A DNA stretch of 64,000 nucleotides, from contig LN717261.1 of NCBI GenBank assembly GCA_001244265.2, positions 1,627,591-1,691,590 on the forward strand, given 5' to 3'. The notes beneath the pieces were generated by a model. That model made no database searches, was not told where the DNA came from, and was given only the letters and a program-made list of their open reading frames with translations. This DNA is from Microbotryum violaceum. Taxonomy: Eukaryota. Below, piece by piece: positions 1,930 through 42,026 of this stretch; position 1 is the stretch's first letter; every line of letters starts with the position of its first letter. Both the position numbers and the translations under genes were made by a program.

Positions 1930-4900
1930 ATGGACGCCTCGACACTCTTGGCTGCGACCTTGTCGCCGAATGCGCAGGAACGCGAGAATGCGACCGTTCA
2001 ACTGGCGCAGTCCCTCAGCTCGAGTCCGACACAGTATCTCGTCTCGCTGTCCAACTCGCTGGCGGACGTCAACTTGCCTTCCCACCTGCGCAATGCGGCC
2101 GGCCTCGCGATCAAGAACGCGCTCTCGGCGCGCGACACGAGCCGCTCCGACGAGTATGCCCAGCGCTGGAAGTCGCTCGACCCCGCGACACGTACCCAGC
2201 TCAAGCATGCCGTGCTGTCGACCCTCGCCGCGGCCGATCGCGGAGCTCGCAACGTCGCGGGCCAAGTCGTGGCCGCCATCGCCGCCATCGAGGTGCCCGC
2301 GGCCATGTGGCCCACCCTGATCGCGCAGCTGCTCGAGCTCGTCGCCAACGGTGACAACCCAGGTCTGCGGCAGGCTACACTGCAGGCGATCGGTTACATC
2401 TGCGAGTCGATGGTGAGTCGCGCCCGCGCTGTGGCGCGCTTCAGCTTTCCCCGTCCGGCAGCCCCTGGCCGCGCTCCGGAAGCAGATCGCGGCCCCGGTA
2501 CCTCGAGCACTCGCTCCAGGCGCCAGTTCATTTTCGGCGCCATCTTTTACGTCTCATTGAAGTATCCGTGTAGCGGGACGTGGCTGTGACGATATGGGCA
2601 CCCGCGCTCCTGGGCAGAGGCGATGCAATGCTTGGCGGGACTAGACCCCTTCGACACGCGCGCCGAAAACTGACTAAATGTGACCGTTTATACTGTCCAC
2701 CCACAGAAACCCGAGCTGTTGGCGAGTCAATCAAATGAGATCCTGACCGCGGTCGTGCAAGGCGCTCGAAAGGAAGAGTCAAGGTGTGTCACCCGAGTCT
2801 CGCAGGCCATGCACGTCGAGAGTTCTGACTCCATAACCTCGTTCGCCGGCAATTTGCTAGCCCGGAGGTGCAGCTAGCGGCTGTCCACGCCCTTTACAAT
2901 TCTCTTGAATTCGTCAAAGACAATTTTGAGCGCGAGGTGGGTTGCGAGCCTTCTTTGTACCTACACGTGGCTCGTGCCTCCGGCGTGACTGATCCGTGAT
3001 TTTGTGATCCGCGGTGTTACCGATAGGGAGAACGAAACTACATCATGCAAGTGGTCTGTGAGGCGACACAGTCACCGTCGTCCGACGTTCAGGTTGCCGC
3101 ATTCGAATGTCTCGTTCGTATCATGAGCCTGTACTACGACTATATGAAGCACTACATGGAGCGAGCGCTCTTTGGCGTGAGTCAAGTGCCCGCATCCTTG
3201 GCCGCAGGCTGTCCCCCCTGAAGTCTCTGGGTCGCCACTAATGTCTACGCCGAGCCGAACTCCACCAGTTGACCGTACTGGGTATGAAGCACGCTGACGA
3301 GCAAGTGGCTTTGCAAGCCGTCGAATTCTGGTCGACCGTCTGCGACGAGGAGATCGAGCTCGCGCTGGAAGCCGAGGATGCAGCCGAGTATGGTGACCAG
3401 TCGGAACGTGACTCGTCGCATTTTGCTCGCATTGCGCTACCAGAAATCCTGCCCGTCTTGTTGCAGCTGCTTCTCAAGCAGGAAGAGGATACGACCGAGG
3501 ACGAGTGGAGTGTCTCCATGGCGGCAGGGACTTGCTTGGCACTTCTCGCGCAATGCGTTGGCGATGGTATCGTGCCCCCCATCATCCCCTTCGTCGAGAC
3601 AAATATTAAGGACGCGGATTGGCGCAAACGGGAAGCCGCGGTAATGGCGTTTGGATCGATTCTGGATGGACCCGAGGAGAAAACCCTGATGCCCCTCGTT
3701 TCGCAAGCCCTTCCGATGCTGATCGAGATGATGCAGGACCCCTCGATGCACGTCCGCGACACCACTGCATGGACGCTCGGACGAATTACCGATGTACTAA
3801 TCAAGACCATCAACTTGGATGCCCAGCTGCAACCGCTGGTTACAGCCTTGGTCCGCGGTCTCGAAGAATCACCGCGCATCGTCAGTAACTGTTGCTGGAG
3901 CATCATGAACTTAGCGGAACAACTGGGCGATGCCCAAGCTGAGTCTACGGAGATGAGTCCATACTACGACGGCTTCGTTTCCGCGTTGCTTCGGCTTGCC
4001 GAGAAGTGAGTTGCTTGTCCCTTTGCCGTGAATGGGAACTTCTGCTTATGCTTGCTTCACAGGAGCATGAATGAGGCAAGTGCTCGAACTTCAGCCTACG
4101 AGGCCTTGTCGACACTCGTAACGCACGCCTCGAAAGACACCCTACCTACGATTTCCAAGCTCGTGCTTGCTTTGCTTGATCGTTCCGAGAGTCTTCTGGC
4201 ACTGCAGGTAAGCTCCATCCTGTCGTGGAACAAGTCCGCTCTCTGCTCAAGCGACCTTCTCTTGGACAGAGCCAATTGGTTGGCGCGGATGACCGGAACA
4301 ACTACAACGAACTTCAGGTCAACATCTGTACGGTTCTCACGGTTCGTTACCCCTCCCATGCGAGTCTTATTCGCAGACCACTGACCTAGGGATAATGCGC
4401 CATACATACAGAGCGTCACACGGCGACTCTCTCGCACTATTCAGCCTCTTGCCGATCGGATGATGACTCTGCTCCTCCAGCTCGTCAGCTCAGCCGGGAA
4501 GCAGTCCCCAATCCTCGAGGACGCTTTCCTTGCAATCGGCGCTATCACGGCTGCACTCGATGAGAACTTCCATCCCTATCTTCAGGCCTTTCTCCCTTTT
4601 CTCGTCAATGCTCTCAACTCCCACGAAGAGTACCAGTTGTGCTCGATCGCGGTTGGGCTCATCGGCGACCTCTGTCGGGCACTGGGTGAAGCCAGCCTCC
4701 CGTACTGTCAAGTCTTTATGGAGCTTCTGCTCACCGATCTACAGAGCACGGTTCTGCATCGAAGCGTGAAGCCTCCCATCATCAGCTGCTTCGGTGACAT
4801 TGCCTTGGCGGTCGGACCTGGATTCGAGCCATTCCTTGAAACAACGATGTCGGTGCTGCAACAGGCTGGAACAGTCCAAGTAGACACGGTCAGTACTGCC

Positions 4901-5409
4901 GGCTGCGGCCCGCTTCGACGACTACACCATGAAGACTTACTGGACTTTGCCTGTGCGCACCATTTTACAGAGCAATTACGATCTCATCGACTACGTGATG
5001 ACCTTGCGCGAGGCGTTGCTCGAAGCCTATACCGGCATCGTCAGCGGTCTCAAGACGGTTAGCAAGTCGGATATACTCCTCCCATATCTCAATTCAATTT
5101 TCGCCTTCGTCCATCTGGCCCTCTCTGATCCAGACCGTACCGAAACCCTGTTACGTTCAGCAATTGGGCTTATCGGGGATATCGCCGAAGCCTTTCCGGA
5201 GGGTCAACTCAGGGAGGCCCTCACCTCACCTTGGGTTGCCGACATGCTCAAGGCTGGCCGCACCAAGCTTGGTGGTTCAGAGACCAAAAAAGTTTCGAAA
5301 TGGGCTAAGGAGGTCAGTGGACGTGCTTATGGTGGTTCACTATCTTGCCCTTCTGCTGACCGGGTCATCCGCTTGATCTCGGCAGATGGTTCGTCGCGCA
5401 ACCCAATAA
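1930..5409 (+). CDS. KAP95: Importin beta-1 / karyopherin beta (multi-exon)
   Basis: HEAT-repeat importin-beta motifs [57 protein letters not shown]. Last exon MVRRATQ* ends at 5409. Confidence 0.95.
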
Positions 5410-5835
5410 TCTGGGCGAGTGCTTCTTCGCGGTGCCTTATCCCATCATCATGCCACGTCCACCCCCTCCTTCTGTGCCGCGCACTCCATCTTTTCCGGCG
5501 CCGCATACTTACAACACTGCACACGTCGGAGATACATCGTTCCTGCATTCAGAATTCCCAGGGTCACCATTTTCGACGGGTAGTGGATGGCCTACCGCCT
5601 CTTCATTATAGATTTGGAAGTTCCAAAGGAACATCATCATGGCCCATCCCCATACTTCTCGCATGCAATGCAGCCAGCATCTCGTTTTTCCCTGACATCG
5701 TGGTAGCCCAACGATACAGTCTCTGCAGAACTCGCCCAGTGCCACTGCCTCGCACACGGAAAGCGCCGGGAGCCGGCAATTTGAAGTTCATTCCAACAAC
5801 GTTCCCTGGCAACCCACGACAGTCCAAGATTCGCT

Positions 5836-9143
<3,308 letters not shown>

Positions 9144-10899: not shown

Positions 10900-12147
10900 C
10901 ATGCAAGCCTGCCACGCGCTCGAGGTAAGTGTTTAGAATATGCTCGGCTAGTTGCACGACGTACTCATATCTCCGCAACCTCTCTGCTACCTCCCACGGA
11001 GTCTTTCCGGACGCTCGTTCAATCGTGTTGAACGCCTGCGCTATGCCTCGCAAAGCGATCTCTTGGTCCTTTAAGCTTCAAACAGCCCGCCTTGCGCGCC
11101 ATCAAGGATCATGTCGTTGCCTCCCCTAGAAAAGGATAATCCGATCCCATGCTCGCTCAAGCGAACAGTCAACGCGATCAAGCTAGTCGACGCGGCGCTT
11201 TCTGCCGAGATCCTAACGGAAGACGCGCGCAGGGATCTTATCACTAAGCTCTCTCTTGAGGCGGGTTCGACCAGGAACCACCCCTCTGGGTGCACCCTCT
11301 GGGGACATCAAACTGGTTTTTTGGGTTGGGCAGTTGCGAGCCATCCCGACGGATACTCCGCTAGCCATCAATAATCTCAGCGAGCTCCACCCTGTCATTG
11401 CTCATGCCCTGGTTTCCGGAGACGTCGAAGGCTTCTTCGAAGCAAACGGCTCTTGATACTGGACAAACGAGGGCTATTACTGCAAGCGCGCAACTTCGGC
11501 GGCACTAACGACCCCCAATGCCCCTCTTGCGGAGGGTGCCTTCCATGTCGCGCAGGCTGCGCCCGTGGCCGCTGTGGTTCCCGGGCCCCCTAGTATCATG
11601 ACAATAGAAGGCGTAGGCGAAGTTTTCTCTTACCACCTCAACGCTCTTCCTTGGGGTACGGATGGGATTGTCATTGTGGAGAAGTGTCTTTTCGTGTTTT
11701 CCACGCAATTTGATGCCACTCAGTTCCCAGTTGGCTGGCTGTCTTGCTCAACTCGTAACCTCTCCCAGAGGGATGCTTGTCTCTACCCAAGACGCCATCG
11801 ACAATGAAGAGCAGAACTGGGCAGACATCGAATCCGAGAGGATGGAGCAACTCATGCATCTGGCCGGGTCCCCAGCTCCAGCTCCAGCTCCGGCTCGCCC
11901 GCCCATCCACCGAGTGCAAACGGCGCCATTGCAAGCCCACTTGGCACCCCCAACGCAACAGTACCCTTCAGTGTACCAGCCCACATCCCCCACTATCCAT
12001 GTACCCACTGCAGAGCCCGCCAATGACAAGGACCGCTGCTACCGCCTTGAATGCCTCAATGCAGCTTGTGCAACGCCGGCCTACTCCGCGGATCCCAAAG
12101 TGATTGGACGACTCAGCCAAGAAGCGTCTTGGGATAAGGCCCGCACG
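10900..12147 (+). pseudogene. Broken Cys-rich coding remnant, possibly a DNA-transposon protein, cut off by the Gypsy-B LTR
   Basis: Fragmentary ORFs (QCPSCGG; GPPSIMTIEGVGEVFSYHL; CYRLECLNAACATPAYSADPKVIGRL) ending exactly at the LTR edge at 12148. Family not confidently recognised. Confidence 0.3.
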
Positions 12148-12385
12148 TGAAAGGCACGAGATTCCTCTCAAGCTTCACTGGTGACCTAAGCTGACAGGTG
12201 CAAGTTATATGGATTGCAACTAGCTTCTGGTGTCAGCCTGATCATCTACAAGAGTGCTGAGATATGGAACACCAGTACTCACCTAGCTTCTGGTGTCAGC
12301 CCAATGAGGAGGGAAATGAAGAAGCTAGGTGCGCGCAATCTCTATTTCTAGTGCCTGTGGCCCATAGTAAAGCGTGCACCTTACA
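12148..12385 (-). repeat. 3' LTR of Gypsy-B (238 bp)
   Basis: Minus strand TGTAAGG...CCTTTCA, preceded by polypurine tract CGGGGAGAG just after the chromodomain stop at 12429. Confidence 0.8.
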
Positions 12386-12906
12386 CTCTCCCCGCCTTGA
12401 AACAAATCCCTTCCTCCGGTCGAAAATCCTACTCCTTGTTCCGACGCTCCCACATATCCAATGCCTCGGCAGGCTCCCATGAATCGCTGTCTGATGGCCA
12501 CGAGACCCACGAGATGAGGTATTGCTGCTTGCCAGCACGGATCCTCTCGTCGACAATGTCTTCAATGATGTATTCTGGCTCGCCACATACATCCACTGGG
12601 CCCAGTTGCGCAGGTTCACGGTTGGGGGACAGGGCTGTGTCGTTCTTGCAGTAGGTCTTGAGCTTGCCTGTGTGAAAAAATGGTACCGCTGCATCGTCCC
12701 CGTTCAGCTGCAGGGTGTAGGACAAGATTTCCGGTTGGGCCTTGACAATGCAATAGGGTGGAAGCACCACGTGCAGTGGTGCTCCAGAACGATAGACAGG
12801 ATCAAACAATAGTAATTCACTAGAACCTCGGGTCAGTGAGCTGGCAAAAGCCAAGGGAGGTTCTAGGCGTGCGCAAGCTATTCAACTAAGCCAAAAGTTC
12901 TATTGC

Positions 12907-15900
12907 TATTGAAACTGAACAGCGATGTGCTGAACGAGTTGGCGGCAGGGACAAGCCAATGAGTTTGTAATCAAGTGAAGATTGCAATAAAGGAGTTCTT
13001 CACATACCTGAACGAGTTGGCGGCAGGGACGAGCCAATGAGTTCGTAATCAAGTGAAGAAGAGGAGACAAAGACGCGAATTGCGCGCGCGACTAATATAA
13101 AGTGGAGACGCGCGTGGTGCGGATTTAAGGCAAGAGTAATTTACTTCAACACCCCCCCTTGCTCTTGGCCTGAAATTTGCCGAAGGCCAATAGCGTCGCA
13201 ATGACGCTGGAAAATCGCTCGAGGCAGCGGCTTGGTGAAGATATTGGCTACCATGTCATGGGTAGGGATGTAGGTGACCAAGATCTCTCCATTTCGAATG
13301 TGCTCCTGAACAAAGTGCTCCAACATGCGAAGGTGTTTGGTGCAAGCATGGAAGACCGGGTTCTGGTGAGCACGATAGCACCTTGATTGTCTCCAAGCAG
13401 ACGAAGGGGCAACAATGTGTCAAGGCTGAGCTCGGTGAGGAGCGAGCAAAGGAAGACTGCCTCCTTGGCAGCGTGCAAAAGGCCCAGATACTCGGCTTCC
13501 GTAGACGAACACGCCACTTGGGGTTGGAGACGGGATGACCACAATATCGCGCCACCAGCCAGTTTGAACAAGTAGCCCATTGTTGACCTCGACGTGTTCA
13601 CGTCGGATCCCCAGTCCGAGTCAGAATACCCCTCGTATCCCAGCAAGGGTTCGTTGTTAGCCACGTAATGGATGCCCAGATCGAGCGAGCCTTTGATGTA
13701 CCGAAGGACGCGTTTGACGGCCTCGAGATGCGCTGCCCCCGCTTTGCCAACAAACCGAGAGAGATACCCCACAGCGTGTGCAAGATTGGGTCGGGTGGCA
13801 ACATCGGCGTACATGAGGGAGCCGATCATAGAATGATACGTCGAGTTGTCGGCTTCATTGGGGTCGATCTCGGGCAACAACTGGAGGTTGGCCTCCATTG
13901 GCGATTTGCAGGGATTGCAATCGGACATGCCAAAACGAGCCAACACGTCGACAAGGTATTGGCGCTGCAGGAGGGTGATCCCGCCATCATCATGCCGGAC
14001 GACCTGAACCCCTAGAATCCAGTCAGCCGGGCTGAGATGTTTTACGCCATAAAGGGTGTCGAGTTGATCCAGGACTCGATCGATCTTCCCAAGGTTGGGA
14101 CCAAAGAAGAGGAGGTTGTCTACATAGAGCGCAATGTAGTGATCACCCAAAACGTCGGCGCGCCTATAAATGCATTCATCGCAGGCGAGACGGCGGTAGC
14201 CGAGATTCGCTAAAGTGGCGTTGATTGTGTCGTTCCAGACTCAACCGGCTTGCTTGAGCCCGTAGATGGAACGGTGAAGACGGAGGCACTTGCCGTCATA
14301 GCCTTCGATGCCAGTGGGGACGTGCATGTAGATCTCTTCCTCCAGGACGCTGTGGAGGTAGGCCTTGTCCACGTCAGCTTGTATGATGTGGTGGCCCCTG
14401 GAGGCTGCGTGCGCAACGAGAGCGCAAATGGAGGTGAACTTCGCCGTTGCTGCAAACATCTCGTCAAAATCACCTGCCCGCTGTGCGCATCCCTGAGCTA
14501 CAATGCGGCTCTTTAACGACACCATTTTGCCCGCCTTATCGCGTTTGGTCCGAAGCACGTGGCGACTCGGCAAGATAGTGGCTGCCCTGGGAACGGAGGC
14601 AAGGTCGACCACGCTGAACACCTTGAAGTCGTCCTTCATCGAGCGGAACTCCTCAATGGCACCAGCTTTCCAACCTTCCGCATGAGGGTGGCGCATGGCT
14701 TCCTTCCAAGTACTGGGATCGCTGGTGGGAAGCGTGAAAGGATCTTCAGGCTCGGAGAGAGGATGGTCCGCCTTTGAGACATCGATGCCTGCCTCCGCGA
14801 GATTGGCAACCAGCGCAACAACCTCGTCGCCGAGTGAGAATGCAAAGGCAGAAGGTGTCAAGCGCAAGGATGCGAGGGCTCCGTACCGAGCCGGCGGATT
14901 GCGCGCACGTGGGCCTGCGGGTGGCTGCCAGGCCGGGCCAGGGGAATCGAAACGCAAGGCAGCCGGTGGGTCAACGTGCTCGGGGGGAATAATGATGACC
15001 CCGCTGTCATCGTCCCCCGCGGCCGGAAGCGGGGGCGCTCGGATGCCCGTTGCTCAAGCAGGGAAGTCGTCCTCAAAGAATGTAACACTGCGGGACTTGA
15101 AGACCTGTCTTGTGTTGGGGTCCAGCAGTCTGTACCCCTTGGACTCGAGTTCGTAGCCGACGAAGACGAGTGGGATGCCTCGCGGATCGAGCTTGCTGCG
15201 CGGCTTGATGGTAGCGGCCTTCCACGCTCGACAGCCGAACACGCGTAGATGGCCAGCTGAAGGTTTGGAACCGTACCAACGTGTGTGAGGCGTGGTGCCC
15301 GAGTTTGCAGAGTGCGGCGAGCGATTTTTGACGTAGACGTACGTTGCCAATGCCTCGGCCCACAAAGCGTGAGGTAGGCCCGACTGGTGGAGCATTGAGC
15401 GGACACCCTCGGTGATCAAACAATTTGCACGTTCGGCAACTCCATTCTGTTGAGGCGTGTCAGGGATAGAGAGCTGACGAGTAATGCCTTGCTCCTCCAG
15501 GAATCTGGAGAACTCGTTCGACATGAATTTGCCCCCATTATCCGAGCGGACAGCAAGGACTTTGCGTGACGTGGAGCGCTCCACCTTCGCGAGCCAGGAT
15601 TTGAAGGCCGCAAAGGTGTCGGACTTGTGTGACATCGGAATCGCCCACAAATACCAAGAATGGTCGTCCACGATGACGAGAGCGTATCTCGCACCCCCTA
15701 ATGACATGGCACTGTCGAACGTGAGGAGGTCCATGTGGACTCGTTTGAGCGGCTGAGCAGAGCGATTCAATGCGACGGCAGGGAACGGGCGATGCGTAAT
15801 TTTGCCAGCTTGGCAAGTGTCACATTTCAAATCCTCATTTGAATCTACCTCCATGTTGACTCCCGACACGGCTTCAGTCGAAATCAACTGTCGGAGGGCG

Positions 15901-17436
15901 CGTGGGTGGAGGTGAGCGAAGCGTCCGTGCAAGACCGACATGGGAACGGCCACAAGCGCACGCAGGAACGCACCCACTTGATGAACGAGAGCAGCGACGT
16001 CGACGAGCGAGGCCTGCATGTGGTAAAGTCCGTTCTTGAGCTCGCCAGTGTGACACACCATGTCGGCGATGGAGACCATTGCCTTGGCCCGAGTCAGACG
16101 GATGTCGTAACCCCCGATGTCGGCACGACTGGCGGAGAACAGGTTGACCGGAGCGGTGGGCACGAACAAGGCGTCGTTGAGTTGGCGGATGCTGCCGTCG
16201 AAGGAACGAACGATTGCGGAGCCGACGCCTTCGATGGAGTTGACAACTTCACCAGTGATGCCTTTGCGCGGAGCTGGCTTGCACTTGCGGAAGGACGTGA
16301 AACATGCGTGATCGTTGACGATATGGTGCGTCGCCCCGCTGTCCAGGATGATGGAGGGCCTGGCCAAGGTGGACATCGTGGCTGTGAGGTAGCCAAGCAC
16401 AGGACCGTCAACCAGCGTCGAGATATCAGGCGCAGTGACGAGCAAGGCGGAAGGCGCTGAAGGAGCCTTCGTCTTCTTCCCCTTGGACCCAGCCTTGTTG
16501 TCCGGGCACTTGCGATTCCAGTGCGGACCTCCGCAGTGGTGGCACGGTAGACTTGTCCGCTGTCGCAATCGGGCTTGCCACCATGGCGACGGGTTTGGGA
16601 GCTGGCGTCTGATCCGCCTGCGTGTGGAGCGACTGGAGGACCTCCGTCGGGCTCGGTAGCCTATCCAATCCTTGCCGAAGTGTTTGCGTGTAGTATTCAC
16701 GGTACAGATTCTTGCCAAAGTGGACAAGGCGGAACGACACAATCTGCTCGAAAGTAAGCTCGTGTCCCGAGAGCGTGTTAAATAGTTCAATGGTTGTTGC
16801 TTGGTACTTTGCGAAGGCGTCCATGCCGGTGGGAGGGGGTCCCACGTCGAGCAACATTTGGAGACGGATGAGAATGTCAGCCACCATGCCGGTACTGGCC
16901 GCCTTCTTGATCATCTGTAAGACTTCCGCAGGAGTGTGGTCGTAACCATCCTTTATGTGTTCTCGGATGTCCGGTGAAACAGAACGCATCAGCAGCGCGA
17001 CCGCTTGGAAATTGGCGTGATCGAGATCCGTGCGCGTGTTGGGTGATTGGACGGGTGTCGCGAGGGTGCAGTTCCAATAGTTGCCGCCAAGGGCGCCTCG
17101 CACGTCGTCGATCCATTGCGACCAGCCCCCAGCGTTTCGCAGATGGCATGATAGGTCAACATCGCGTGGTTTGACGAGGACAATAGGGGTTGTTCCCCCT
17201 GTGACCATGAGAGGAGTGCTCATGTCTTGATGACTCGAATTGGCTGGCCGCTCGGTTGGGCTTGTAACCTATTGAAACTGAACAGCGATGTGCTGAACGA
17301 TTTGGCGGCAGGGACGAGCCAATGAGTTCGTAATCAAGTGAAGAAGAGGAGACAAAGACGCGAATCGCGCGCGCGACTGATATAAAGTGGAGACGTGCAT
17401 AGTGCGGATTTAAGGCAAGAGTAATTTACTTCAACA
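12907..17436 (-). mobile_element. Copia-1: full-length Ty1/Copia LTR retrotransposon (degenerate) inserted in the Gypsy-A 3' LTR
   Basis: TSD ATTGC at 12902-12906 and 17437-17441. LTRs 12907-13151 and 17270-17436 (TGTTG..CAATA). gag ATG 17223, CHHCGGPHWNRKC knuckle, ILDSGAT protease, integrase (VRSDNGG, QQNGVAERAN), RT (IYGLKQAG, YVDN), RNase H (YSDSDW). PPT GAGCAAGGGGGGG. Confidence 0.96.
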
Positions 17437-18264
17437 ATTGCCTTCCATTGTACCTCGGGCAAAGGCCTCAGGCCTTGCACCCTCCCCTCCATCCTCTTCT
17501 TCAACTCCCAATGCCAAAGCGCCTCTGTCCCCACCAAGTTTTCACGCGCTTCCATGGTGGCTTCGTGCTGCGGATAGCCCTCCCACCAAACACGATAGCG
17601 TTTCCCCCCCCCCCCCCCCCCCCTTGTTGTCTCCTCCAATATCTCTTGCACAACCCATTCTTCATGTCCATCGACTATAACTGGTTTGGGTCTGGCGGGT
17701 TCTCGATTCGGAAGAGGTTGGGGTCGTTGGCTCGGTAAGGACGGAGCTTGCTTACATGAAACGTAGGATGTGATTGGTCACCTTCGCTAAGCTGCAGTGT
17801 GTAGTTGGAGGTGGCAACATTTGCGGCAATAACCTTGTAGGGTCCCTCAAAGCGATCGAAGAGCTTGGCCGACTTGCGGTGTCCCGTTTTAAATCGAAGA
17901 CGACGGTCACGGGTGTCCACCATGACGAAATCGCCCACCGCAATGTCCGGTTCTGGCCGTCGATGTCGGTTGACCTGCTCCGCTTGCCGCACCTTGGCTG
18001 CAGCCAATGCATCCCGGACCTCCGCCAACACCGCCTTCCGCTCGGCAATCAGGTCCTTTGCTGCAGGCACATCGGGCAAGTCAGGTCGATTGAGAGACGT
18101 TGGCAATAGGCTGAGTGAACGACCTAGGACCACCTCAAACAACGATTTGTTCGTTGAGGCATTGACGCTTGCGTTGATCACAAACTCAATGTTGACCAGA
18201 TGTCGGACCCAATTGTTCTGCCGCTTGTTGACCACGGCTCGCAAGGCTTGAATGGCGGTCTTGT

Positions 18265-18384
18265 TGGTCCGTTCGCTACGGCCGTCGGTTTCCGGGTGGA
18301 ACGATGTAGACATGGCGAGTCGAGTGGTCCGTTCGCTACGGCCGTCGGTTTCCGGGTGGAACGATGTAGACATGGCGAGTCGAG
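18265..18384. repeat. Perfect 60-bp tandem duplication inside the Gypsy-A integrase
   Basis: [20 protein letters not shown] is encoded twice in frame. Confidence 0.95.
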
Positions 18385-21300
18385 TGCCCATCAGATTGTG
18401 ATACGCGCGCCAGAAATGCGATGTAAATAGCTTATCCCGATCGGACACTATCCTTGTTGGCGGTCCGAAGAAGCGGTGCCATCCCTCATGAAAACGTTCG
18501 GCTATGTCCTTGGCGGTGTCCGCGGCCAGGCTAGGTATCAAGCGCGTGTAGCCCGATAAACAATTGGTGATCGTGAGGAGCATGTCGAACCCCTGGCTCT
18601 TGGGCAGGGGGCCCACAAAATCGAGAGCCACCTCCTGCATCAGCCCATCCGGCACAGCCAACGCATGCAATACCCCCAACGCACCCGTGCTTGTTGCTTT
18701 GGTACGTTGACATACATGACACCTGATGGAAGGTCTTGCGCCAGCGCGTCGTGAGCGTCGTGTAAGATGACCTCCCGAAGCTGTGGCACCACAGGTACAA
18801 CCATCCTACCCTCGAAATACAGCACCCCATCCACACAAGAGAACCCTGGCGACGAGTCGAGATTGCGCTTGACCTGCTGGCAAAAGGGATCAGAGTCATA
18901 GCCCTCCACAAGGCGGCCCCGCAGCTGTGTGTCGACGTCCATCTCCGAAACCGCCTGTACGGAATCAGGCTCCCCCTGCGGGAAAGAGTACCGGCTCACC
19001 GCGTCTGCCACGGTGTTCTCGCCTCCCGGAATGTAGGTGATGTCGAAATCGTAGTCGGCTAGACGTTCGACCCAGCGGGCCTGACGCTTTGATAGATTTT
19101 CCTGCGTCTTGAGGTACTTCAGCGATTCGTGGTCAGAAAGGACATGGAAGTGGACACCCATCAAGTTGACTCGCCACTGACGCAGGGCGTCCACGACCGC
19201 CAAAAGCTCCTGTTCATGGGTCGGGTAGTTGACCTCCGCACTGATGTACTGACGAGACCAATACGCCACCGGGTGTGCCTTGCGCCAATCCTGCCCCTGA
19301 AGCAACACGGCGCCTATCCCAACGTTACTTGCGTCCGTCATAACCCAGAGGGGATCAGCGGAATCCGTGTGGTCGATTGGCTTGAGACATGGCAGCAAGG
19401 TGACGATGGCCTTTATGGCGTTGAAGTGTCGCTCTTGCTTGGCACCCCACATGAGTCGGACATTGGCGTTCTTTGACGTTAAATCCGCCAGAGGTTTGGT
19501 ATGTTGGGCCAGACCATTGATGAACTTGCGCAAGTATTGAACGAGGCCTAGAAACCCCCAAAGCTCTGTGACAGTCCGCGGACGCGGCCACCCCACGATT
19601 CGCTCCACCTTCGACTGATCTGCTGCAATCCTGTTTCGCGAAATGACATGCCCCAAAAAGTCGCAAGACGTTCGAAAAAGTTCGGTCTTCTTTGGCAAAC
19701 AATACAGATTGGTCCGCCACGGCGCCTCGAGTACCTCCTTGACGTGGGTTTGATGATCCTCCATGGTATCCGAGAAGATAGTGATGTCGTCAAGGTAGGT
19801 GAAGCAGCTCTTGCCAATGAGACTAGACAGGGCCTTGTTGACCCGGCGTTGATGCGTCGCCGGCGCGTTCAACAGGCCCATCGGCATGACGACCCACTCG
19901 AAGAGCCCCCAGGGGGTTGCCACCGCGGTCTTTGGTATGTCCTCCTCGGCCATCTTCGTCTGGAAAAAGCTGTTCGTCATATTGATCTTGGACCAGAAGC
20001 GCGCCCGAGCTGCGACGGCCAAAATCTCGTCCGGCAGGGGAAGCGGTGTGCGATCTGGTACCGTCGCTGCATTGAGGATCCGATAGTCGTTGACCCAATG
20101 CGGCATAATCGACGGGTCGGTGTCCATACCCTTCTTGGGAATGATGAAGGCCGGCGAGGAGTATTCCGACGATGATGGGCGAAGACGACCGGCCGCGAGA
20201 TGTTCATCCAGTAAGCGTTGCCACACCGCACGCCAGCGCATCGGAGTGCCGTAGGTTGGTTGCTGCGGAGTCTTCATACCAGGTTTCAGCGCGATACGAT
20301 CGCGGACCTTTGACTCGTACTGTGAGACCGGCGGGATGTCTGCCGGAAATCGGTCCGAGAACTCCTTGCGAAATGCGACTTCAAGTGCTCGCAATTGCGA
20401 CTCTTCCGCTTGCCGCTCTTCAAGATGAGCGAGACAGGCCCGAATGCTCGCCTGAACCGCACTCTCTGACCATTTCCCCTTTTCCCCCCGGTGCATCAGA
20501 TCGATACGCTTGCCGGGTAGGGTTGGATCGGGGGCCAGCACTCGACGCCTTTTGCAGTCGACCAGGATATTGTGTCGCTTTAAGAACGGTTGCCCCAACA
20601 CCACTTTCAACGGCGTCAATGGCGCAATCTTCAGAACGACGTCACGGTGCTGGGTAGACCATTGGCCGTTCAGGGTACAAAGTGGCACACACACAAATTC
20701 AGTGCCGGGATGCGAGACCCTGTGACTTTGGATTGCAACACTAACAGATGTGGGTACCTGAAGCTTCCTCTGTGTCAACCGTAGTTTCTCCACTTCCCTA
20801 TCTGCGATGAAGGAAGCGGAAGCACCCGTGTCAACTAGAGCTCGCAAGGCAGGTCCATCCTCTGTTGTGAGCTTCACAGAAAGGGAAATGGGTTCACACC
20901 TCTCGTCATCCGTGCCATTGTCGTATTCGTCATCGCACAGGCAGTGTAGCTCTTCACCCTTGTCGTCAATTTCGTCTACGGCGTCGGATAGGGATGCAAC
21001 TTGTTCTGGGGATACGGGACCTTGTCGCCAACCCGCTGGGACTTTACAAGCCGAAGTTGCCCAGGTAGTGCACGTGTCCTTGAAGTGGCCAGCATTGATC
21101 TTGCGACATTTGAAGCAGCCCTGATTGCTCCTGAGGAAAGCACGCCTACGGTCGGTCATCGGCGGCGCTCTGGTTTGGGAAGACAACGGCGGCAGCGTAG
21201 ATGGCGAGGCGGTAGTGCGCAGCGTAGGCGTGGAGCGGACGGTTCTCGCTGAGGCTTGAGCTGTCGCCTTCACGGAGGCGCGGGTGGCACTGATGACTTG

Positions 21301-22116
21301 CCAGAGTCGCCTAGCTTCTGCGTCGAACATCTGGTAATCGAAGACTGCGGAGCTGGTGGTCGAGTCGGCTTTGACTATGGAGGCGTCGAGTTCGTTGGGC
21401 GACAATCCCGTCCCCTTGATCACCTCCGAGAGTCGGAGTCGCTGGGAGAGCTCCTCGTCCATGTGGAGCAGGAGCATGCGGACCAGTTGGGTGTCGCTGA
21501 CAAGACTGACACCCAGTTCCAGTTGCAGATCGCAAGCAGCCGTTGAAAATTCTCGGTAATCACCCGTCTGTCACAAGTTGTTGAGGTGTTGATAGTGTTG
21601 CCACATGTAATCGGACGGCAATGCGCGAAGTGTCAAATCGCGTTGGAATACACCGTACTTCTTGTTGACATGTGACGCGGCATCACTGGAATACCACACC
21701 TTCAGCTCTGGGTCGAGGAGCAGCTGGCCGATTATATCGATCTTGTCAACATCTGTCTTGACCTTCTCTTTTTTGAAGTATTGATCGTTGCGAGACCAGA
21801 AGAATCGAAGTCCCAATAAAGTGCGGTCGGTGCGGCAAAGGTAAGACGGGGCGTGCAATTTCCAGTGAGGGGGTGCGTCCTTGTGCGGTTCGCTCATCCT
21901 GCATGCGGCAGGACAGCGGCGGTCGTTGTCTGAGTCGGAGTCGGTCACGGTAACGGCGGAGGCGGGGTCGGAGGCTCCCGAGTGGATGCTCTCCGAGTCG
22001 CTTAGCGGCAGAGGTATGAGCAGTGGATCGGGTATGGCAAAGGCTCTAGCCAACCTGGCAGCGGCGCGAGTGACGGTGGGAATGCTGACGTGTCTTGATC
22101 ATTGTCAAAAAAAAAT

Positions 22117-22302
22117 TGGAAGCACCGCGTACAGCGGTGCTCCAGAACAATAGACAGGATCAAACAATAGTAATTCACTAGAACCTCGGGTTAGTGAGCT
22201 GGCAAAAGCCAAGGGAGGTTCTAGGCGTGCGCAAGCTATTCAACTAAGCCAAAAGTTCTATTGCCTTCCATTGTACCTCGGGCAAAGGCCTCAGGCCTTG
22301 CA
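22117..22302 (-). repeat. 5' LTR of Gypsy-A; the 3' LTR is split into 12759-12906 and 17442-17479
   Basis: Direct repeat of the split copy with ~5 transitions; contains the empty ATTGC site at 22260-22264. Confidence 0.95.
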
Positions 22303-25300: not shown

Positions 25301-25327
25301 AGGAGAGGGCCATGAGCGCCAAGTAGG

Positions 25328-25793
25328 TGTAATACCCCAGGCCCTTCACGACTAGGTTACACAGTCCAAAAGACTGACAATTTCAATAGATGCATATTGA
25401 AATCAGAAGGGTAGTTAAATAGCGTAAGGCAACCGAGCCTTACACCCGCCACCACCAGACTTAGAGATACTCTAAGCATGATTAGACGAATCTCTAATGG
25501 CCCCACCGTTCATTCATTCATTCGTCACGGCCATTAGAGATCAAATAACTAGGTCGGCCCAAGGGCTAAACCTTGCGCCGGTCCTGCTCGGGCTTTTCTC
25601 CGCGGCGGGCGAAAATAGCATCCTTCAAAAATGCCCCACCGGGATCCGAACTGCCGACCTTTATCTATTGAAATAGTGTAATACCCCAGGCCCTTCACGA
25701 CTAGGTTACACAGTCCAAAAGACTGACAATTTCAATAGATGCATATTGAAATCAGAAGGGTAGATAAATAGCGTAAGGCAACCGAGTCTTATC
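25328..25793 (-). mobile_element. Non-autonomous miniature LTR element (TRIM-like), 466 bp
   Basis: 117-bp direct repeats at 25328-25444 and 25677-25793 (TGTAA..TTACA; last 2 nt of the right copy altered). 232-bp non-coding core; G-rich PPT-like GGTGGTGGCGGG next to the 3' LTR. No TSD visible. Confidence 0.85.
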
Positions 25794-26477
25794 CCCCCGG
25801 ATGGATCGGCAAGCCAGGTCGATTGTCTTTGCGTTCCGTGTGTTGGATTCCGTTGAATGGTTCATTCGTTCGCGTTGGTCAAGATCTACGGCATGGCTCG
25901 GGAAGGAAGGTCGCTCGTTTCTGGTCAATATCCTCGCGTCAAGGCGAGGCTCGTTTCGTTGTACTGGATCGCTTTTCTCTCGGCCCCGACGGCTCAACAG
26001 CCAGCACTCGAGATTCAGCCAAGGGAGGACATCAGGCGCTGTCGGGGTGACGAGTAGCTGGGGCTTGGCTGCGGCCTGTTAGTCCCTGGGGACCTCTACC
26101 TCCGGCTTCGACCCCTACCTTGGCCCCTCGGGTGTGTTCCCCTCCTCTCTGTCTTAGTATTCCTGGTTCTCCGTATCCCCAGTCGTGACTTTCTGTAGAC
26201 TCTCCCCCTTCTTTCTCTAGGCGCTCTTGCCTGGTTTTCGAGTATCTTTGCTCCCGCTCTTGGGATGTGAAGCGGCAGCAGTACTCACCGCCCGTTGGAG
26301 TCCGCGTTAGGTGCTCGGCGAGTTTTGATCTGCGCAGCGCTCTTTGCGCGCAGGGGTTTGACTTTCACCCAACTGCTTGCCGTCGTTGCTTTATAACCTC
26401 CTTTAGCTCTTTTTGTAGCGGTCCCAGCCAACCCGAAGGATTGCAATTTATGAGCCCCAGTCAAAACAAAAAAAAAA
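25794..26477 (+). mobile_element. Diverged LINE 3' UTR fragment ending in poly(A)
   Basis: Shares motifs with the LINE-A 3' UTR (CAAGGGAGG..ATCAG) and with the 33720-33784 terminus (CTTTAG..GTAG..TTGCAA..ATGAG..A-run). Confidence 0.55.
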
Positions 26478-28827: not shown

Positions 28828-31800
28828 TGATTAAGCACACCATCATCACCTGGAACGTGAGGAGGGGCATGGGGGTCCCGGAGAAACGACGTGACATTTA
28901 CAACTACCTATCCCTTTTCAAAGCATCGGCCATTCTCATACAAGAGCACTTCATCAGACCGCACCTCTGGCAACTCATCAAGGACGAGTACGAGGGCAAG
29001 CTCTTCATCAACCAACATTGTCTGACTCTAATTCCGGCTGACTCCCCCTGATCGACGCCGAGCTCTTGCGCACCCACTCGGCACTCGACGGCCGGCTCCT
29101 CGTCACGTCCTTTCGTCTGCGGGGCGACATCAAAATTCTAGAAATCAACAACGTTTACGCGCCCGTTGACCCAAAGCAACGAGCGAAATTCTTTGACAAA
29201 CTCTTATTTCACAAAACACAGAAATCCCACCTCCGACTCCTTGGCGGTGATCTCAACGACTGCCCGCGCCCAGAAGTCGATCGGCGGAACCAAAGTCGGC
29301 GCGGCCACCACTGGCCAATCCTGATCGGCAAGCTCGACTCGGCCTACACGGACTGCATCCGCTACAAACACCCCATCACCCCATCCTTCACTCGACCTAA
29401 TCCCAATCGCAAGCGACCCAACTCCTTCTCCCGGCTTGACTACTTTCTCCTGCAACGGACACACCAAAAAAGACTCGATCAGGCCTCGACGATCTACGAC
29501 TATCCCAAGGAGCTTTCCGATCACCGACCGGTCTTGATTGTGCTGGCTCTCTCAGACGATCCTGATGCGACCCTCCCACAGCTCAGCCTACCTACCACAT
29601 CAAACCAACTACATCGAATCAACACCACAACCTTTAAGACGGTGAAATTCCAGCGGATGATGGAAGGATGGTTGGAAGGGGCAAGCGGGGAGGAACCGGT
29701 GGGGGAGCTCGAGGTCATTCTGAAGGCGTGCAGGGATAGGGGTGGGGAGATGGCGAGGAGGTTGCATCGGGAGCGGACGGAACGGATGGAGTATTTGGTG
29801 GGGAGGGTGCAGGATCTGGAGGCGATACCGGAATGGGGGGAGGCGGAAACGGCAGAATGGACAAGGACGTCCGAGGAACTCAAGCGGGCGGTCGAGGAGC
29901 GCGCGCGCCTACTCCGGATCCAAGCCCACGTACCCGAGATCGCCTCCGAGGAACGACTGTCGCGGCCGGTCCACGCCAAGCTCGCGGCGCGAAACTCGGA
30001 CTCCAAGATCACAGCACTGCGCTTGAGCAACGGAGAGCTAACGCATGACATTGATGTCGCTCTTGACCACACGCAGGCGCATTTCCAGCGCCTCTACCAC
30101 ATCGAGCCTCGTGACCCGGACCGCGTCGACCGACTTCGGGACGATTTCCTCGCGCCGATCAGGGCGGCGCGGACTTGCGACGACCCGCGCTCGGATCCTC
30201 TCTTTCTGCGCCGACTCTCGGAATCCCAGATCGACTTACTCCAGCGACCAATCACCGAGGACGAGGTCGTGGCCGCGATCGGGACGACGCACCCGGGGCG
30301 ATCGCCGGGACCGTCGGGCGTGCCCTACGAACTCTACCAGACCGCACCCAAGGCGTGGGCCAAGGTGCTGACCAAGGCCTACAACGCGATGATAGAGCGA
30401 GGCTCACTCTCTCCCAAGCAGGGCCAAGGACTCGTGCGCCTCATCTTCAAGCGACACAAGAAGAATGCTGATCGCGCCGAACTTTCGGCGTACCGGCCGA
30501 TCACCCTGCGCGAGTGCGATTACAAGATCTTTACCAAGGTCTATGTCGCCCGTTTGAACCAAATTCTACCGGATCTCCTCCCGCCGCAGCAGCACGGATT
30601 CGTCAAGGACCGCCGATCGGCTGACGCTGCACTACACCTTCGTCTCCTGATCGAGGAAGTTGGCGCGCGCAGGACCGAGTTCCCCGCGGCCGCACTCTTA
30701 TCTCTTGACCAATCGTCCGCCTACGACCTCGTCGAGCATGACTGGATCTTTGCCATCTTTGACGCTCTGGGCGCTCCTGCCACCTTTCTTCGCGTGCTGA
30801 GGATGCTCTACTCGGGTGACTCGACCTCGGCCCGCTACATCATCAATGGGTTCTTGACGGCGCCGGTACGACTGACGTGTGGGCTCGGCCAAGGGGACCC
30901 GGCGTCGTCGTCGGTCTGGGACATCGTGTTTCAGCCGTTTCTGGATGCTCTACACCGTCGAAACATCGCGCTGAATCTCTCCATACCTGCACTTCATCCG
31001 TACCCACAGAGCCGCGCCATTACATCGCTTGCTTTTGCCGATGACGTTGTCGTCGCCGTCGCGGGCTTGGGGTCACTCAACTTGCTCGATGACCTGGCGC
31101 TCGACTGGAGGCATGCAACGAATGGCCGGCTCAACACGGACAAGACGGTCGTCCTACCGATCGGACGCCGCTGGGACCCGGGGCAACGCCCGCTCGTCGT
31201 CAAGGCCGCAGGCGAGTCGCTCGAGTGGATCGGCCTCCCCTTCGACCCGAGCGGCGACACCGAACTCGCCTACGCGAATCTCATCGAACGCCTCGAGGCG
31301 ACGCTGGAAGGGGTTCAGCATCGCTGGCTCACACACCACACCCGTGCCTTTTACGTCAATCGGTACGCCATCCCCAAGATCCTGCACTTCCTTGCAGCCG
31401 ACATCCCGCCGCCCGAAGTCGTCAAGAAGCTCGATGACATGCTCGTCGATTTCGTCCGTGGGGGCAAGGGCAGGACCAGCTACGGCAGAGATATCGTGTT
31501 CACAGCCAAGCTCAAGGGGGGACTCGGGGTGATCAGGATGCAGGACGTCGTGGACGCGGTTGCGGCACGGATCTGGGACGTTCTTCTCGGCGGTTCGGGC
31601 GCGATCTGGCAAGGACTTGCGCGCGTGGCACTCCAGCGAGCTCAGTCCGACCTCGACCTGGCCACCGATCTCTGGCCACATCCTCCACTCCCATCCCCAG
31701 CGACCTCCATCCCCGATGGCGAGCAGCATTGGGGGTTCCGAAACAGCAAGACGCGCAGGTCAACCCGAGGACCTTGACCACCGCGAACCTGCTCGCGCTT

Positions 31801-33784: not shown

Positions 33785-35663
33785 CACGCGGCGGGCATTG
33801 ACACCTCGACGGCGAATCGACCGCTCTCGGAACCAGAGGACCCGTTCTCGCTCCCGAGCAGTGATCCCACCACGTGGAATGAGGCCATGCGCCATCCTCA
33901 CGCCGCGGCATGGAAAGCGGGAGCCATTGAGGAATTCCGCTCGATGAAAGACGATCTCAAGGTGTTCAGCGTCGTCGGACTGTCCTCCGTGCCCAAAGGA
34001 GCTACGATCTTACCAAGTCGTCACGTCTTTCGAACCAAACGCGACAAAGCCGGGAAGATGGTTTCACTGAAGAACCGCATTGTTGCACAGGGCTGCGCAC
34101 AAGGCCCAAACAGCTTCAACAACACCTTCTCACCCACGGCTAAGTACACCTCCATCCGCACGCTCATCGCGCACTCGGCCTCGAAGGGCCACCACATCAT
34201 TCAAGCCGACGTTGACAAGGCCTATCTTCACGGTGTGCTGGAGGAGGAGATCTACATGCGGGTTCCAACTGGCATCGAAGGCTACGAAGGCAAATGCCTC
34301 CGCCTTCATCGATCGATCTACGGTCTCAAGCAGGCAGGTCGAGTGTGGAACGACACGATCAACACCATGCTCGCGAGTCTCGGCTATCGTCGCCTCGCCT
34401 GCGACGAATGCATCTATCGTCATGAGGACGCTGGGGGTGATCACTACATTGCACTCTACGTCGACGATCTACTCTTCTTTGGGCCGGATCTCGGGGAAAT
34501 CGATCGAGTCCTTGACCAACTCGACACCCTCTACGGAGTCAAACGCCTCGGCCCGGCCGAATGGGTACTCGGGTTCAGGTCGTACGACACGACGATGGCG
34601 GGATCTCCCTTCTCCAGCGTCAATACCTCCTTGACGTCTTGGATCGCTTCAACATGTCCGACTGCAACCCCTGCAAGTCACCCATGGAAGCCAACCTACA
34701 GCTTTCGCCGGAACCCGATACAGACTCCGCCGACAATGCCATCTACCGTTCCATGATCGGCTCACTCATGTACGCTGTTGTTGCCACTCGCCCTGATCTA
34801 GCCCACTCCGTCGGATATCTGTCACGTTTCGTCGGCAAGGCTGGCGACACTCACCTCGAGGCGGCCAAGCGCGTCCTTCGTTACATCAAAGGATCGCTCG
34901 ATCTTGGCATACACTACACGCGCACCAGTTCGCCTCTGCTGGGGTACGAGGGGTACTCTGACTCGGACTGGGGATCGGACATACAGACGTCGAGGTCCAC
35001 TATGGGTTACTTGTTCAAACTGGCGGGTGGGGCCATCTCATGGTCATCTCGTCTCCAACCTCGCGTAGCTTGTTCATCCACGGAAGCGGAGTACCTGGGC
35101 CTCTCGCATGCAGCCAAGGAGGCTGTCTTCCTTCGCTCGCTCCTCACCGAACTCGGTCTCGATACGTCGTCCCCTTTACGTCTTCTCGGGGATAACCAGG
35201 GAGCTATAGCGCTCACCCAGAATCCGGTCTTCCACGCTCGCACCAAACATTTGCGCATGTTGGAGCATTTCGTTCGGGAGCATGTTCGGAATGGAGAGAT
35301 CTCGGTCACCTACATCCCAACCCACGATATGGTTGCCAACATTTTCACCAAGCCGCTGCCGCGAGTAGTCTTCCAGCGTCATTGTGACGCCATCGGTCTG
35401 CGCCGCATTTCAGGCCAAGAGCAAGGGGGGTGTTGAGGTAGATTACTCTTGCCTTAAATCTGCCTAGCGCGCGTCTCTATTTGTATTAGCCGCGCGGTCC
35501 AATCGCGTCTTTCCTTCTTCTTCTCCACTTGATTACAAACTCATTGGCTTGCCACTGCCGCCAACTCGTTCAGGTGTGTGAAGAACTCCTTTATTGCAAT
35601 CCCACTTGATTACGAACTCATTGGCTTGCCACTGCCGCCAACTCGTTCAGCACATCGCTGTTC
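33785..35663 (+). mobile_element. Copia-2: 3' half of a Copia of the same family as Copia-1 (RT, RNase H, PPT, 3' LTR from 35431)
   Basis: Colinear with Copia-1 pol (LSEPEDPF..IYGLKQAGRVWN..YVDDLL..YSDSDW..QEQGG). LTR TGTTGAGG.. is truncated at ~35663 by LINE-B. Confidence 0.93.
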
Positions 35664-41440: not shown

Positions 41441-41628
41441 CAGGGTACGGCGCTATCCTCGCGCCCAAGACTTGGCGAGGTTGCGATGGCCCTCCCTGGC
41501 GACCTTGGGACCGGGGCATAGTAGCGAAGGTTTGTTCTTGAATGAGTGTCACTAAAATTGGATGAGAGTGGGAGGGAGAAAGGAAGGGTTCGAGGGAGTG
41601 GCGCAGGATTATTTACGTGGTTTGATTT

Positions 41629-41703
41629 GTTGTTCAGCCCCTAATGCCGCTGGTCGAATGCCATACGGGCAAATTGGTTGTTCAGCCCCTAATGCCGCTG
41701 GTC
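41629..41703. repeat. 27-bp direct repeat GTTGTTCAGCCCCTAATGCCGCTGGTC x2
   Basis: Exact copies at 41629-41655 and 41677-41703. Confidence 0.9.
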
Positions 41704-42026
41704 AACTGCCGGAATGACACTCCACCGCCGGCGCACCGCATCACGTGACAAACGCCAGCCCTCGCGTCGCGCGTCAGGCGGAGCTCTGCTGTAGAAGCAA
41801 TATCATGCAAAGCCACGCGCTTGCGGTTCATTAAATGCAATATGAGTGGAAGCATTGGTTTATGTCAGCGAAGAAAAGAAAGGAAATACTGGGAGCGCTG
41901 TAGCTTCGTTGGAACGGCGCGGAAAATACAAAAGTCAACATAGGGCTTGTACATGACTTCTGATCGGAACCCCAACACCACAGGCAGGTGCGGCAGACAC
42001 AACAGTATGCTGGTACATCCACCACA

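Follow-up and report, generated by a model that had tools for sequence, protein, structure and literature searches.

How does a long terminal repeat (LTR) retrotransposon keep an intron, when retroelements replicate through processed RNA and are textbook intron losers? The question is raised by Copia-1, a degenerate Ty1/copia element in a 64,000-nt stretch of Microbotryum violaceum DNA (contig LN717261.1), here called the window, in whose positions all coordinates are given. The 3′ LTR of Copia-1 holds an intron-like GT..AG segment that is preceded, directly before its donor-like end, by a second copy of its own 3′ part, and the same layout recurs in other LTR elements of the window and in metagenomic relatives. 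We designate the upstream copy X1, the unique part of the segment u and the downstream copy X2, and we write an exon-intron type junction with a slash (AG/GT). The relevant features of Copia-1 are the following.

12907-17436, minus strand: Copia-1, degenerate Ty1/copia LTR retrotransposon, inserted in the integrase/chromodomain region of a second element, Gypsy-B
12907-13151, minus strand: Copia-1 3′ LTR, 245 bp, beginning TGTTGAAG right after the purine tract
13094-13099, minus strand: TATA-like TATATT, beginning 40 nt ahead of X1
13008-13059, minus strand: X1, 52-nt repeat copy ending ..GTTCAG; proposed exon 1 and R (repeat region of the RNA ends)
13007-12982, minus strand: u, 26 unique nt, starting GTATGT (+20 nt)
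12930-12981, minus strand: X2, second 52-nt copy, ending ..GTTCAG
12930-13007, minus strand: intron-like segment of 78 nt, GTATGT...CAG, made up of u and X2
12907-12929, minus strand: LTR tail past the acceptor-like CAG, 23 nt; proposed start of exon 2 and U5 (unique 5′ region)
17269-17436, minus strand: Copia-1 5′ LTR, 168 bp, with a single X at 17293-17344 and the 78-nt segment absent

In element sense, the 3′ LTR comprises 92 nt resembling U3 (unique 3′ region), X1 (52 nt), u (26 nt), X2 (52 nt) and the 23-nt tail. The two copies of the direct repeat (12930-12981 and 13008-13059, 52 nt each, start to start 78 nt) are identical at 50 of 52 positions, and the last 52 nt of the GT..AG unit (13007-12930) thus also stand directly before its donor, as X1. 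Both differing sites have CpG in X1 and CpA or TpG in X2, which we read as post-insertion decay. The initial annotation had described a repeat interrupted at GTATGT; its 78-nt GT..CAG unit, the duplicated tail of that unit and the TATA-like motif upstream hold good, and the length of the repeat is corrected from 51 to 52 nt. The repeat extends over 1.67 periods only, and the tail past the acceptor does not repeat u. The annotation had missed that the Copia-1 5′ LTR has one X against two in the 3′ LTR, the 78 nt being exactly what sets the pair apart. Because of the repeat, such a one-X LTR fits splicing, slippage of reverse transcriptase (RT) or a deletion between the repeats alike.

Recurrence of the architecture had been claimed for Copia-2 and for the unrelated Gypsy-B LTR, and both instances can be placed by coordinates.

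35431-35673 (end approximate), plus strand: Copia-2 3′ LTR, with X1 at 35525-35573 and a 77-nt GTGTGT...CAG unit at 35574-35650; RVT_2 lies upstream
12182-12412 (ends inferred), minus strand: Gypsy-B 3′ LTR, with X1 at 12301-12283, a 63-nt unit at 12282-12220, X2 at 12238-12220 and a tail at 12219-12182 (38 nt)

Copia-2 is ~80% identical to Copia-1 internally, and the two u sequences agree at 25 of 26 positions. Since Copia-2 has the same layout with a homologous u, the two-copy form is older than Copia-1, and the Copia-1 5′ LTR has lost one copy. The Gypsy-B LTR stands directly past the chromodomain stop, and its 63-nt unit reads GTGAGT...CTGAC-N9-TAG; its end was placed from TG..CA and from the divergence of sequencing-run contigs at 12182. 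The window contains no second Gypsy-B LTR.

These three LTRs stand apart from the other repeats of the window. An exact search of both window strands (X of at least 10 nt, AG/GT, X..AG, period 40-119) returned only the Copia-1, Copia-2 and Gypsy-B LTR cases, and the same three account for the 3 of 26 maximal exact repeats (at least 12 nt, period 40-119) in the window that end in AG/GT. The AGGT background is 0.0038 of positions in the window and the metagenomic loci described below; counted over 9 registers and both strands, the chance estimate is 0.068 per case, and ~2e-5 for the four further lineages after the discovery case. A repeat of 33 nt and period 48 at 41625-41705, just 3′ of the open reading frame (ORF) of a long interspersed element (LINE) at 38771-41521, has no AG/GT boundary. 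Likewise, the 121-nt pair at 25327-25796 does not end in AG/GT, and an in-ORF tandem at 18265-18386 is also without the layout.

With the C-terminus of Copia-1 pol as query, we obtained 16 metagenomic loci of 31-43% protein identity; no relative was found with it among viral contigs. The LTR, or a large part of it, is readable in 10 of the 16 loci (L001-L008, L011 and L013), and the other six end before the LTR or are degenerate. Five of the 16 carry the two-copy layout, in sequences that differ.

L003 and L004: X 36 nt, u 21 nt, unit 57 nt, donor GTATGC, tail 7 nt
L007: X 31 nt, u 15 nt, unit 46 nt, donor GTGTGT; LTR end not located
L001: X 22 nt, u 33 nt, unit 55 nt, donor GTATAG, tail 77 nt
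L008: X 27 nt, u 28 nt, unit 55 nt, donor GTATAG, tail 58 nt

A tree of the pol segment places the carriers in three deep lineages, namely Copia-1 with Copia-2, L001 with L008, and L007 with L003/L004; L013, in which a homologue of the L003 X is present once only, is nested among the last, and L005 and L011/L012 fall outside the carrier lineages. In total, the layout is thus carried by three deep Copia lineages and one Gypsy, between which neither X (19-52 nt) nor u (15-38 nt) can be aligned.

L003 and L004 are separate, intact insertions of one family, with different flanks and with target duplications GAAAT and ATTCG, respectively. Each has a 1472-codon stop-free stretch, and their 379-bp LTRs differ within the element at 1 and 4 sites. 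In L003, the 1471-aa gag-pol ORF counted from the first ATG encodes a zinc knuckle, a protease-type barrel, integrase and RVT_2, with integrase before RVT_2 as in Copia-1. The two-copy form is present in all four LTRs of these two insertions; the layout therefore survives reverse transcription unaltered and did not arise by accident after insertion. At 667-680 of L003, directly past the LTR, the gag-pol start ATG lies inside the primer-binding-site (PBS)-like GGTTATGAGCC, and the same motif occupies the same place in L004. Furthermore, u of L003 contains two upstream ATGs, which splicing would remove.

Assembly limits how some of the other loci can be read. The two 'LTRs' of L001 are one assembled sequence, because its ends (1-1606 and 4522-6127) are 100% identical over 1606 nt. 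In L008 and L011, the PBS directly follows the LTR. Rather than simple insertions, the contigs of L001, L008 and L011 appear to be tandem assemblies, circular assemblies or one-LTR circles.

Every LTR unit has the AG/GT boundary, begins with GT and ends in CAG or TAG, and the units are 46-78 nt long. The donors are GTATGT in Copia-1, GTGTGT in Copia-2, GTGAGT in Gypsy-B, GTATGC in L003/L004, GTGTGT in L007 and GTATAG in L001/L008, and the consensus GTRNGY fits five of six units compared, the exception being L008. As a yardstick, five ORF-joining, host-like introns predicted from the sequence of the window measure 57-72 nt, begin with GTGAGT or GTACGT, end in CAG and carry a CTNAY motif (CTGAC, CTCAT or CTTAT). 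The LTR units are comparable in length to these predicted introns, and the Copia-1 unit, GTATGT..CAG, has the ends of a U2-type intron (GT..AG with an extended donor and YAG). In particular, CTNAC with its A exactly 14 nt before AG is found in Gypsy-B, L003 and L008, which have three unrelated X sequences; L001 has the same X as L008. We consider the LTR unit to be probably a spliced intron.

The two X copies also evolve in concert. Within an element, X1 and X2 agree at 36/36 positions in the 5′ LTR of L003, 29/32 in L007, 50/52 in Copia-1 and 48/52 in Copia-2. Between L003 and L007, X agrees at only 21-22/36 positions, and a 4-nt deletion is common to both L007 copies; the TATA-proximal region of these two loci still aligns, and u aligns more weakly. 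Similarly, X differs between Copia-1 and Copia-2 at three sites at which both copies agree within each element. Where single differences occur in the L003/L004 LTRs, only one of the copies is changed, by C-to-T or G-to-A. The likeness of X1 and X2 within an element, despite divergence between elements, indicates that the copies have repeatedly been re-templated from one another. Strand transfer of the ordinary, aligned kind would not have this effect with unspliced RNA.

The position of X1 relative to the TATA-like motif is similarly constrained. The distance from the motif to the start of X1 is 40 nt in Copia-1 and Gypsy-B, 35 nt in L003/L004 and 31 nt in L007, and X1 starts at TCA-type initiator-like bases. 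These distances fit a transcription start at the 5′ edge of X, with X serving as exon 1 and functionally as R; the arguments for X as R are this position and the concerted evolution of the two copies. An enhancer-type repeat of U3 is not what the LTRs contain, X1 lying 31-40 nt downstream of the TATA-like motif in four lineages, with the transcription start itself inferred. Past the acceptor, the tail is 7 nt long in L003/L004 and 23 nt in Copia-1, and tails this short put the RNA 3′ end in X2, in the tail or outside the LTR. As a lead only, the AT-rich u has motifs in L003, L007, L001 and L008 that recall yeast 3′-end signals (TATATA- or TATGTA-like) and may be poly(A) elements.

Our preferred reading of the layout, to which we give an even chance, is that the LTR holds a spliceosomal intron and X functions as R, with strong-stop complementary DNA (cDNA) from spliced RNA rebuilding the intron on X2. 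The anatomy, its recurrence, the conserved splice-type motifs, the concerted evolution of X and the passage of the layout through transposition are observed; that the unit is spliced, where transcription starts, where poly(A) is added and which X copy receives the cDNA, we infer. In the 5′ LTR, transcription would begin with, or close to, the first bases of X1, and the intron (u and X2) would be spliced out, giving an RNA with the 5′ end X-tail-PBS. The RNA 3′ end would lie within or just past X2 of the 3′ LTR, unspliced; here the intron would be kept because the RNA is cleaved and polyadenylated before the acceptor can be used, or in such a way that no 3′ exon is available to splice to. Minus-strand strong-stop cDNA made from the spliced 5′ end, and complementary to X, would then anneal to X2, and its extension through u, X1 and U3 would restore an LTR of the form X1-u-X2-tail, in which X2 is overwritten by X1 sequence. 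Annealing to X1, or RT slippage, would yield a one-X LTR such as the Copia-1 5′ LTR or L013. The likely benefit would be a cap-proximal intron in an intron-dependent host, and possibly a 5′ leader freed of upstream ATGs and poly(A) signals. Such a cycle would account for the duplicated acceptor end and for the one-X by-products; it would also explain why X evolves in concert and why the repeat is bounded by the transcription start on one side and by the donor on the other. Renewal of the intron in this manner had been proposed by the initial annotation; the anatomy that it needs is more general than was seen there, X1 and X2 evolve in concert, and X1 lies 31-40 nt past a TATA-like motif, but the segment is sometimes lost, as the one-X LTRs attest.

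Contigs from sequencing runs bear on the cycle to a limited extent. Twenty of 24 runs share part of the window, none of them half of its words, and we compared contigs from four, of which runs X1 and X4 are guessed to be DNA and runs X17 and X18 RNA. In one low-depth contig of run X17, positions 12930-13007 are skipped (depth 3.6, side 24, 2 other letters at the joint); we do not take this as splicing, since the Copia-1 5′ LTR carries the one-X form in DNA and the run type is guessed. No joint across the 63-nt Gypsy-B segment occurs in the contigs of the four runs, and one contig of run X18 spans 12151-12330 unspliced. Another contig of run X18 leads from gag via the canonical PBS and ends at the first base of X. 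We did not use this end as a transcription start site; a branch of the assembly graph at the start of the repeat explains it equally well.

Several observations weigh against the proposed cycle. A TATA-like motif was not scored before X1 in Copia-2, L001 or L008. Positions 5-6 of the L001/L008 donor, GTATAG, do not fit the host-like GTRNGY, the only branch-like motif in Copia-1/2 is a CTCAT 31 nt before AG, and the L007 unit has no CTNAY motif. With tails of 77 and 58 nt in L001 and L008, the poly(A) site could follow the acceptor, and the 3′ copy would then be spliced too. L005 and L011, whose LTRs are complete, lack the layout, no two-copy form is seen in the parts of the L002 and L006 LTRs that are present, and the existence of one-X LTRs (the Copia-1 5′ LTR and L013) means that the layout is not obligatory. 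The cycle also needs the cDNA to pick X2 over X1 often enough. Finally, the sample is small, consisting of one window and 16 metagenomic loci.

A real intron might instead be kept through an unspliced RNA template. Retroviruses retain their introns through unspliced genomic RNA as a rule, and on this account the X copies would be alike through RT template switching, without any renewal device. The conserved splice-type motifs would be explained, and one-X LTRs would be expected from RT slippage or from an occasional spliced template. However, there would be no reason for a copy of the intron 3′ end to stand exactly before the donor in four unrelated contexts. Moreover, a switch from X2 to X1 deletes u and homogenises nothing, and identical copies across a divergence of 21-22/36 need a rebuilding step. 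An unspliced template with this extra step added is in effect the cycle proposed above, and we regard maintenance through unspliced RNA as unlikely.

Alternatively, nothing may be spliced, and X-u-X would be a duplication of R/U5 that serves strand transfer, the promoter or leader, or poly(A) choice, with AG/GT kept for a non-spliceosomal reason. Direct repeats are common in LTRs, and X sits where R is expected. X of Copia-1 and Copia-2 also contains ATTGG, the complement of CCAAT. In addition, the TATATA- or TATGTA-like motifs of the AT-rich u in these four loci (L003, L007, L001 and L008) could be 3′-end signals. What this alternative leaves unexplained is the recurrence of AG/GT, a donor-like hexamer, YAG and a host-like length where X and u are unalignable, together with CTNAC with its A at -14 in three unrelated X. 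Under ordinary aligned strand transfer, furthermore, the copies would drift apart and not co-evolve. We therefore consider an unspliced duplication doubtful.

A plain tandem duplication that arose in one old LTR after insertion, with splice-like ends by chance, would suit the exact 78-nt difference between the Copia-1 LTRs and the age of the element (LTRs different at 6/144 positions, ORFs broken), but is hardly credible, being contradicted as an origin by Copia-2, whose layout and homologous u show that the two-copy form predates Copia-1, by the metagenomic loci, where both LTRs of two young insertions (L003 and L004) have the layout, and by the mere 1.67 periods with a tail that lacks a repeat of u.

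Going back to the renewal cycle, we tentatively extend it, with rather less than even confidence, to a whole class of fungal LTR retrotransposons (several Copia lineages and, convergently, a chromovirus) that would renew a cap-proximal LTR intron each generation, with exon 1 equal to R and with an intron that may also house 3′-end signals. Splicing in the 5′ LTR would then remove a poly(A) site and upstream ATGs, and polyadenylation in the 3′ LTR would pre-empt splicing. A single arrangement would serve expression that depends on introns, suppression of the 5′ poly(A) site and inheritance of the intron.

The limits of Copia-1 are given by the following further features.

12902-12906, minus strand: target-site duplication, 3′ side, GCAAT in element sense
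17437-17441, minus strand: target-site duplication, 5′ side, GCAAT in element sense
13152-13165, minus strand: polypurine tract, before the 3′ LTR
17257-17268, minus strand: PBS-like GGTTACAAGCCC, adjoining the 5′ LTR; relatives carry GGTTATGGGCCC or GGTTATGAGCC there
22117-22302 (strand not applicable): empty site, a paralog in a Gypsy fragment that matches both Copia-1 flanks without interruption

In a BLAST comparison of the window with itself, 12759-12906 matches 22117-22264 and 17437-17479 matches 22260-22302. The two flank matches share 5 bp of a single paralog that has no interruption, which establishes the limits 12907-17436 and a 5-bp duplication. Copia-1 has the two direct LTRs and the short target-site duplication of Ty1/copia elements, and also their domain order, with rve, gag_pre-integrs and SH3_retrovirus (15054-16910) upstream of RVT_2 (13248-14240) on the minus strand, as assigned by Pfam. 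A PBS-like motif, GGTTAYRRGCC, abuts the LTR in 8 places from 7 sources, and presumably matches the anticodon stem-loop of the initiator tRNA; ARAGORN found no tRNA gene in the 64-kb window. The frame of Copia-1 is split into several ORFs and the alignment of its two LTRs shows 6 differences in 144 positions; judged by this decay, Copia-1 is an old, dead copy. Over 11900-17268, differences from the contigs of runs X1, X4, X17 and X18 are nearly all transitions; for run X1 they number 56 A>G, 54 T>C, 41 G>A and 31 C>T, with each transversion type at most 6. The window copy mostly has A/T where the contigs have G/C, which fits deamination-type decay of an old copy.

Copia-1 is surrounded by Gypsy-B, with RT, RNase H and integrase in 17675-21570 and a Chromo domain in 12429-12854. 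The Gypsy-B ORF of the integrase region includes, at 18265-18386, a perfect 60-nt tandem (2.0 copies, 100%) that is in frame (20 codons) and looks recent. At 18635-18684 on the minus strand, removal of a 50-nt GTGCGT..CAG segment joins Gypsy-B ORFs 18640-21570 and 17675-18805 in frame; the segment could be an internal intron or merely a frameshifted region. On the truncated 5′ side of a further element, Gypsy-A, 121-nt direct repeats (97-98%) at 25327-25447 and 25676-25796 stand 349 nt apart. By eye, the stretch between these repeats resembles a tRNA, but ARAGORN calls none in the window. Two related LINE elements occupy 29042-31777 and 38771-41521, both ORFs with RVT_1 and the first also with an endonuclease domain. 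Up to ~42 kb, the window is a nest of Copia, Gypsy and LINE copies beside a RasGEF host gene at 42981-46892.

Partial likenesses to the layout exist in several known systems. Deltaretroviruses and foamy viruses have the major splice donor inside R, that is, in a transcribed part of the LTR and hence at both ends of the genomic RNA; unlike in the fungal LTRs, the acceptors are far downstream, no copy of the intron 3′ end is known to precede the donor, and the intron persists via unspliced genomic RNA. Spliceosomal introns are carried over many generations by Penelope-like elements, which replicate by another mechanism, and by the Ogre/Tat LTR retrotransposons of plants, in which partial splicing preserves an Ogre intron situated between coding regions; neither group is known to have, inside an LTR, an intron whose acceptor end is duplicated. 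In DIRS1-type elements, an internal complementary region lets template jumps rebuild complete termini. The likeness there is that an internal copy of terminal sequence regenerates what the RNA template lacks; DIRS1-type elements are of another class, use a tyrosine recombinase, have another geometry and involve no intron. In the Rogers model, an intron is born by tandem duplication of an AGGT-containing segment, which likewise gives a GT..AG unit one period long whose removal restores the unduplicated sequence. The Rogers model produces two full periods, whereas in the LTR layout only X is repeated and its copies are identical over long divergence. An origin by AGGT duplication is accordingly not what we find, the tails being unlike u, except for 4 nt in L007, and the repeat covering 1.67 periods.

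Among engineered systems, split-intron retroviral vectors (Ismail et al. 2000; from a passage of the review PMC3182074) have the donor in the 3′ LTR and the acceptor past the packaging signal. According to that passage, the copying of the LTR in reverse transcription puts a working intron in the integrated DNA that is not in the packaged RNA as such, which is the likeness to the fungal LTRs. As far as the passage describes them, these vectors are engineered and make the intron once, in the target cell, whereas the fungal layout is natural, lies wholly within each LTR and would be renewed every cycle. A fragment of the LTR of human T-lymphotropic virus 1 (HTLV-1) is stated, in a passage of bioRxiv 10.1101/2023.01.28.526022, to 'contain an intron' in EF1a/HTLV vectors. 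The passages of PMC7175516 on 'intron' or 'spliced' make no mention of a layout of the fungal kind. In the PMC and bioRxiv papers searched, with subscription journals outside the scope, we found no account of an intron inside an LTR whose acceptor end is duplicated.

If the proposed cycle is true, it would be a natural counterpart to the engineered split-intron vectors and a new use of R-mediated strand transfer. The signature X-AG/GT-u-X-AG with X1 = X2 could serve to find transcription starts and active families in LTR libraries. An LTR element that is spliced and yet passes its intron on would represent a new solution to the constraint of intron loss. In some fungi, mRNA accumulation depends on introns, and for such hosts the cycle would explain how LTR elements are expressed.

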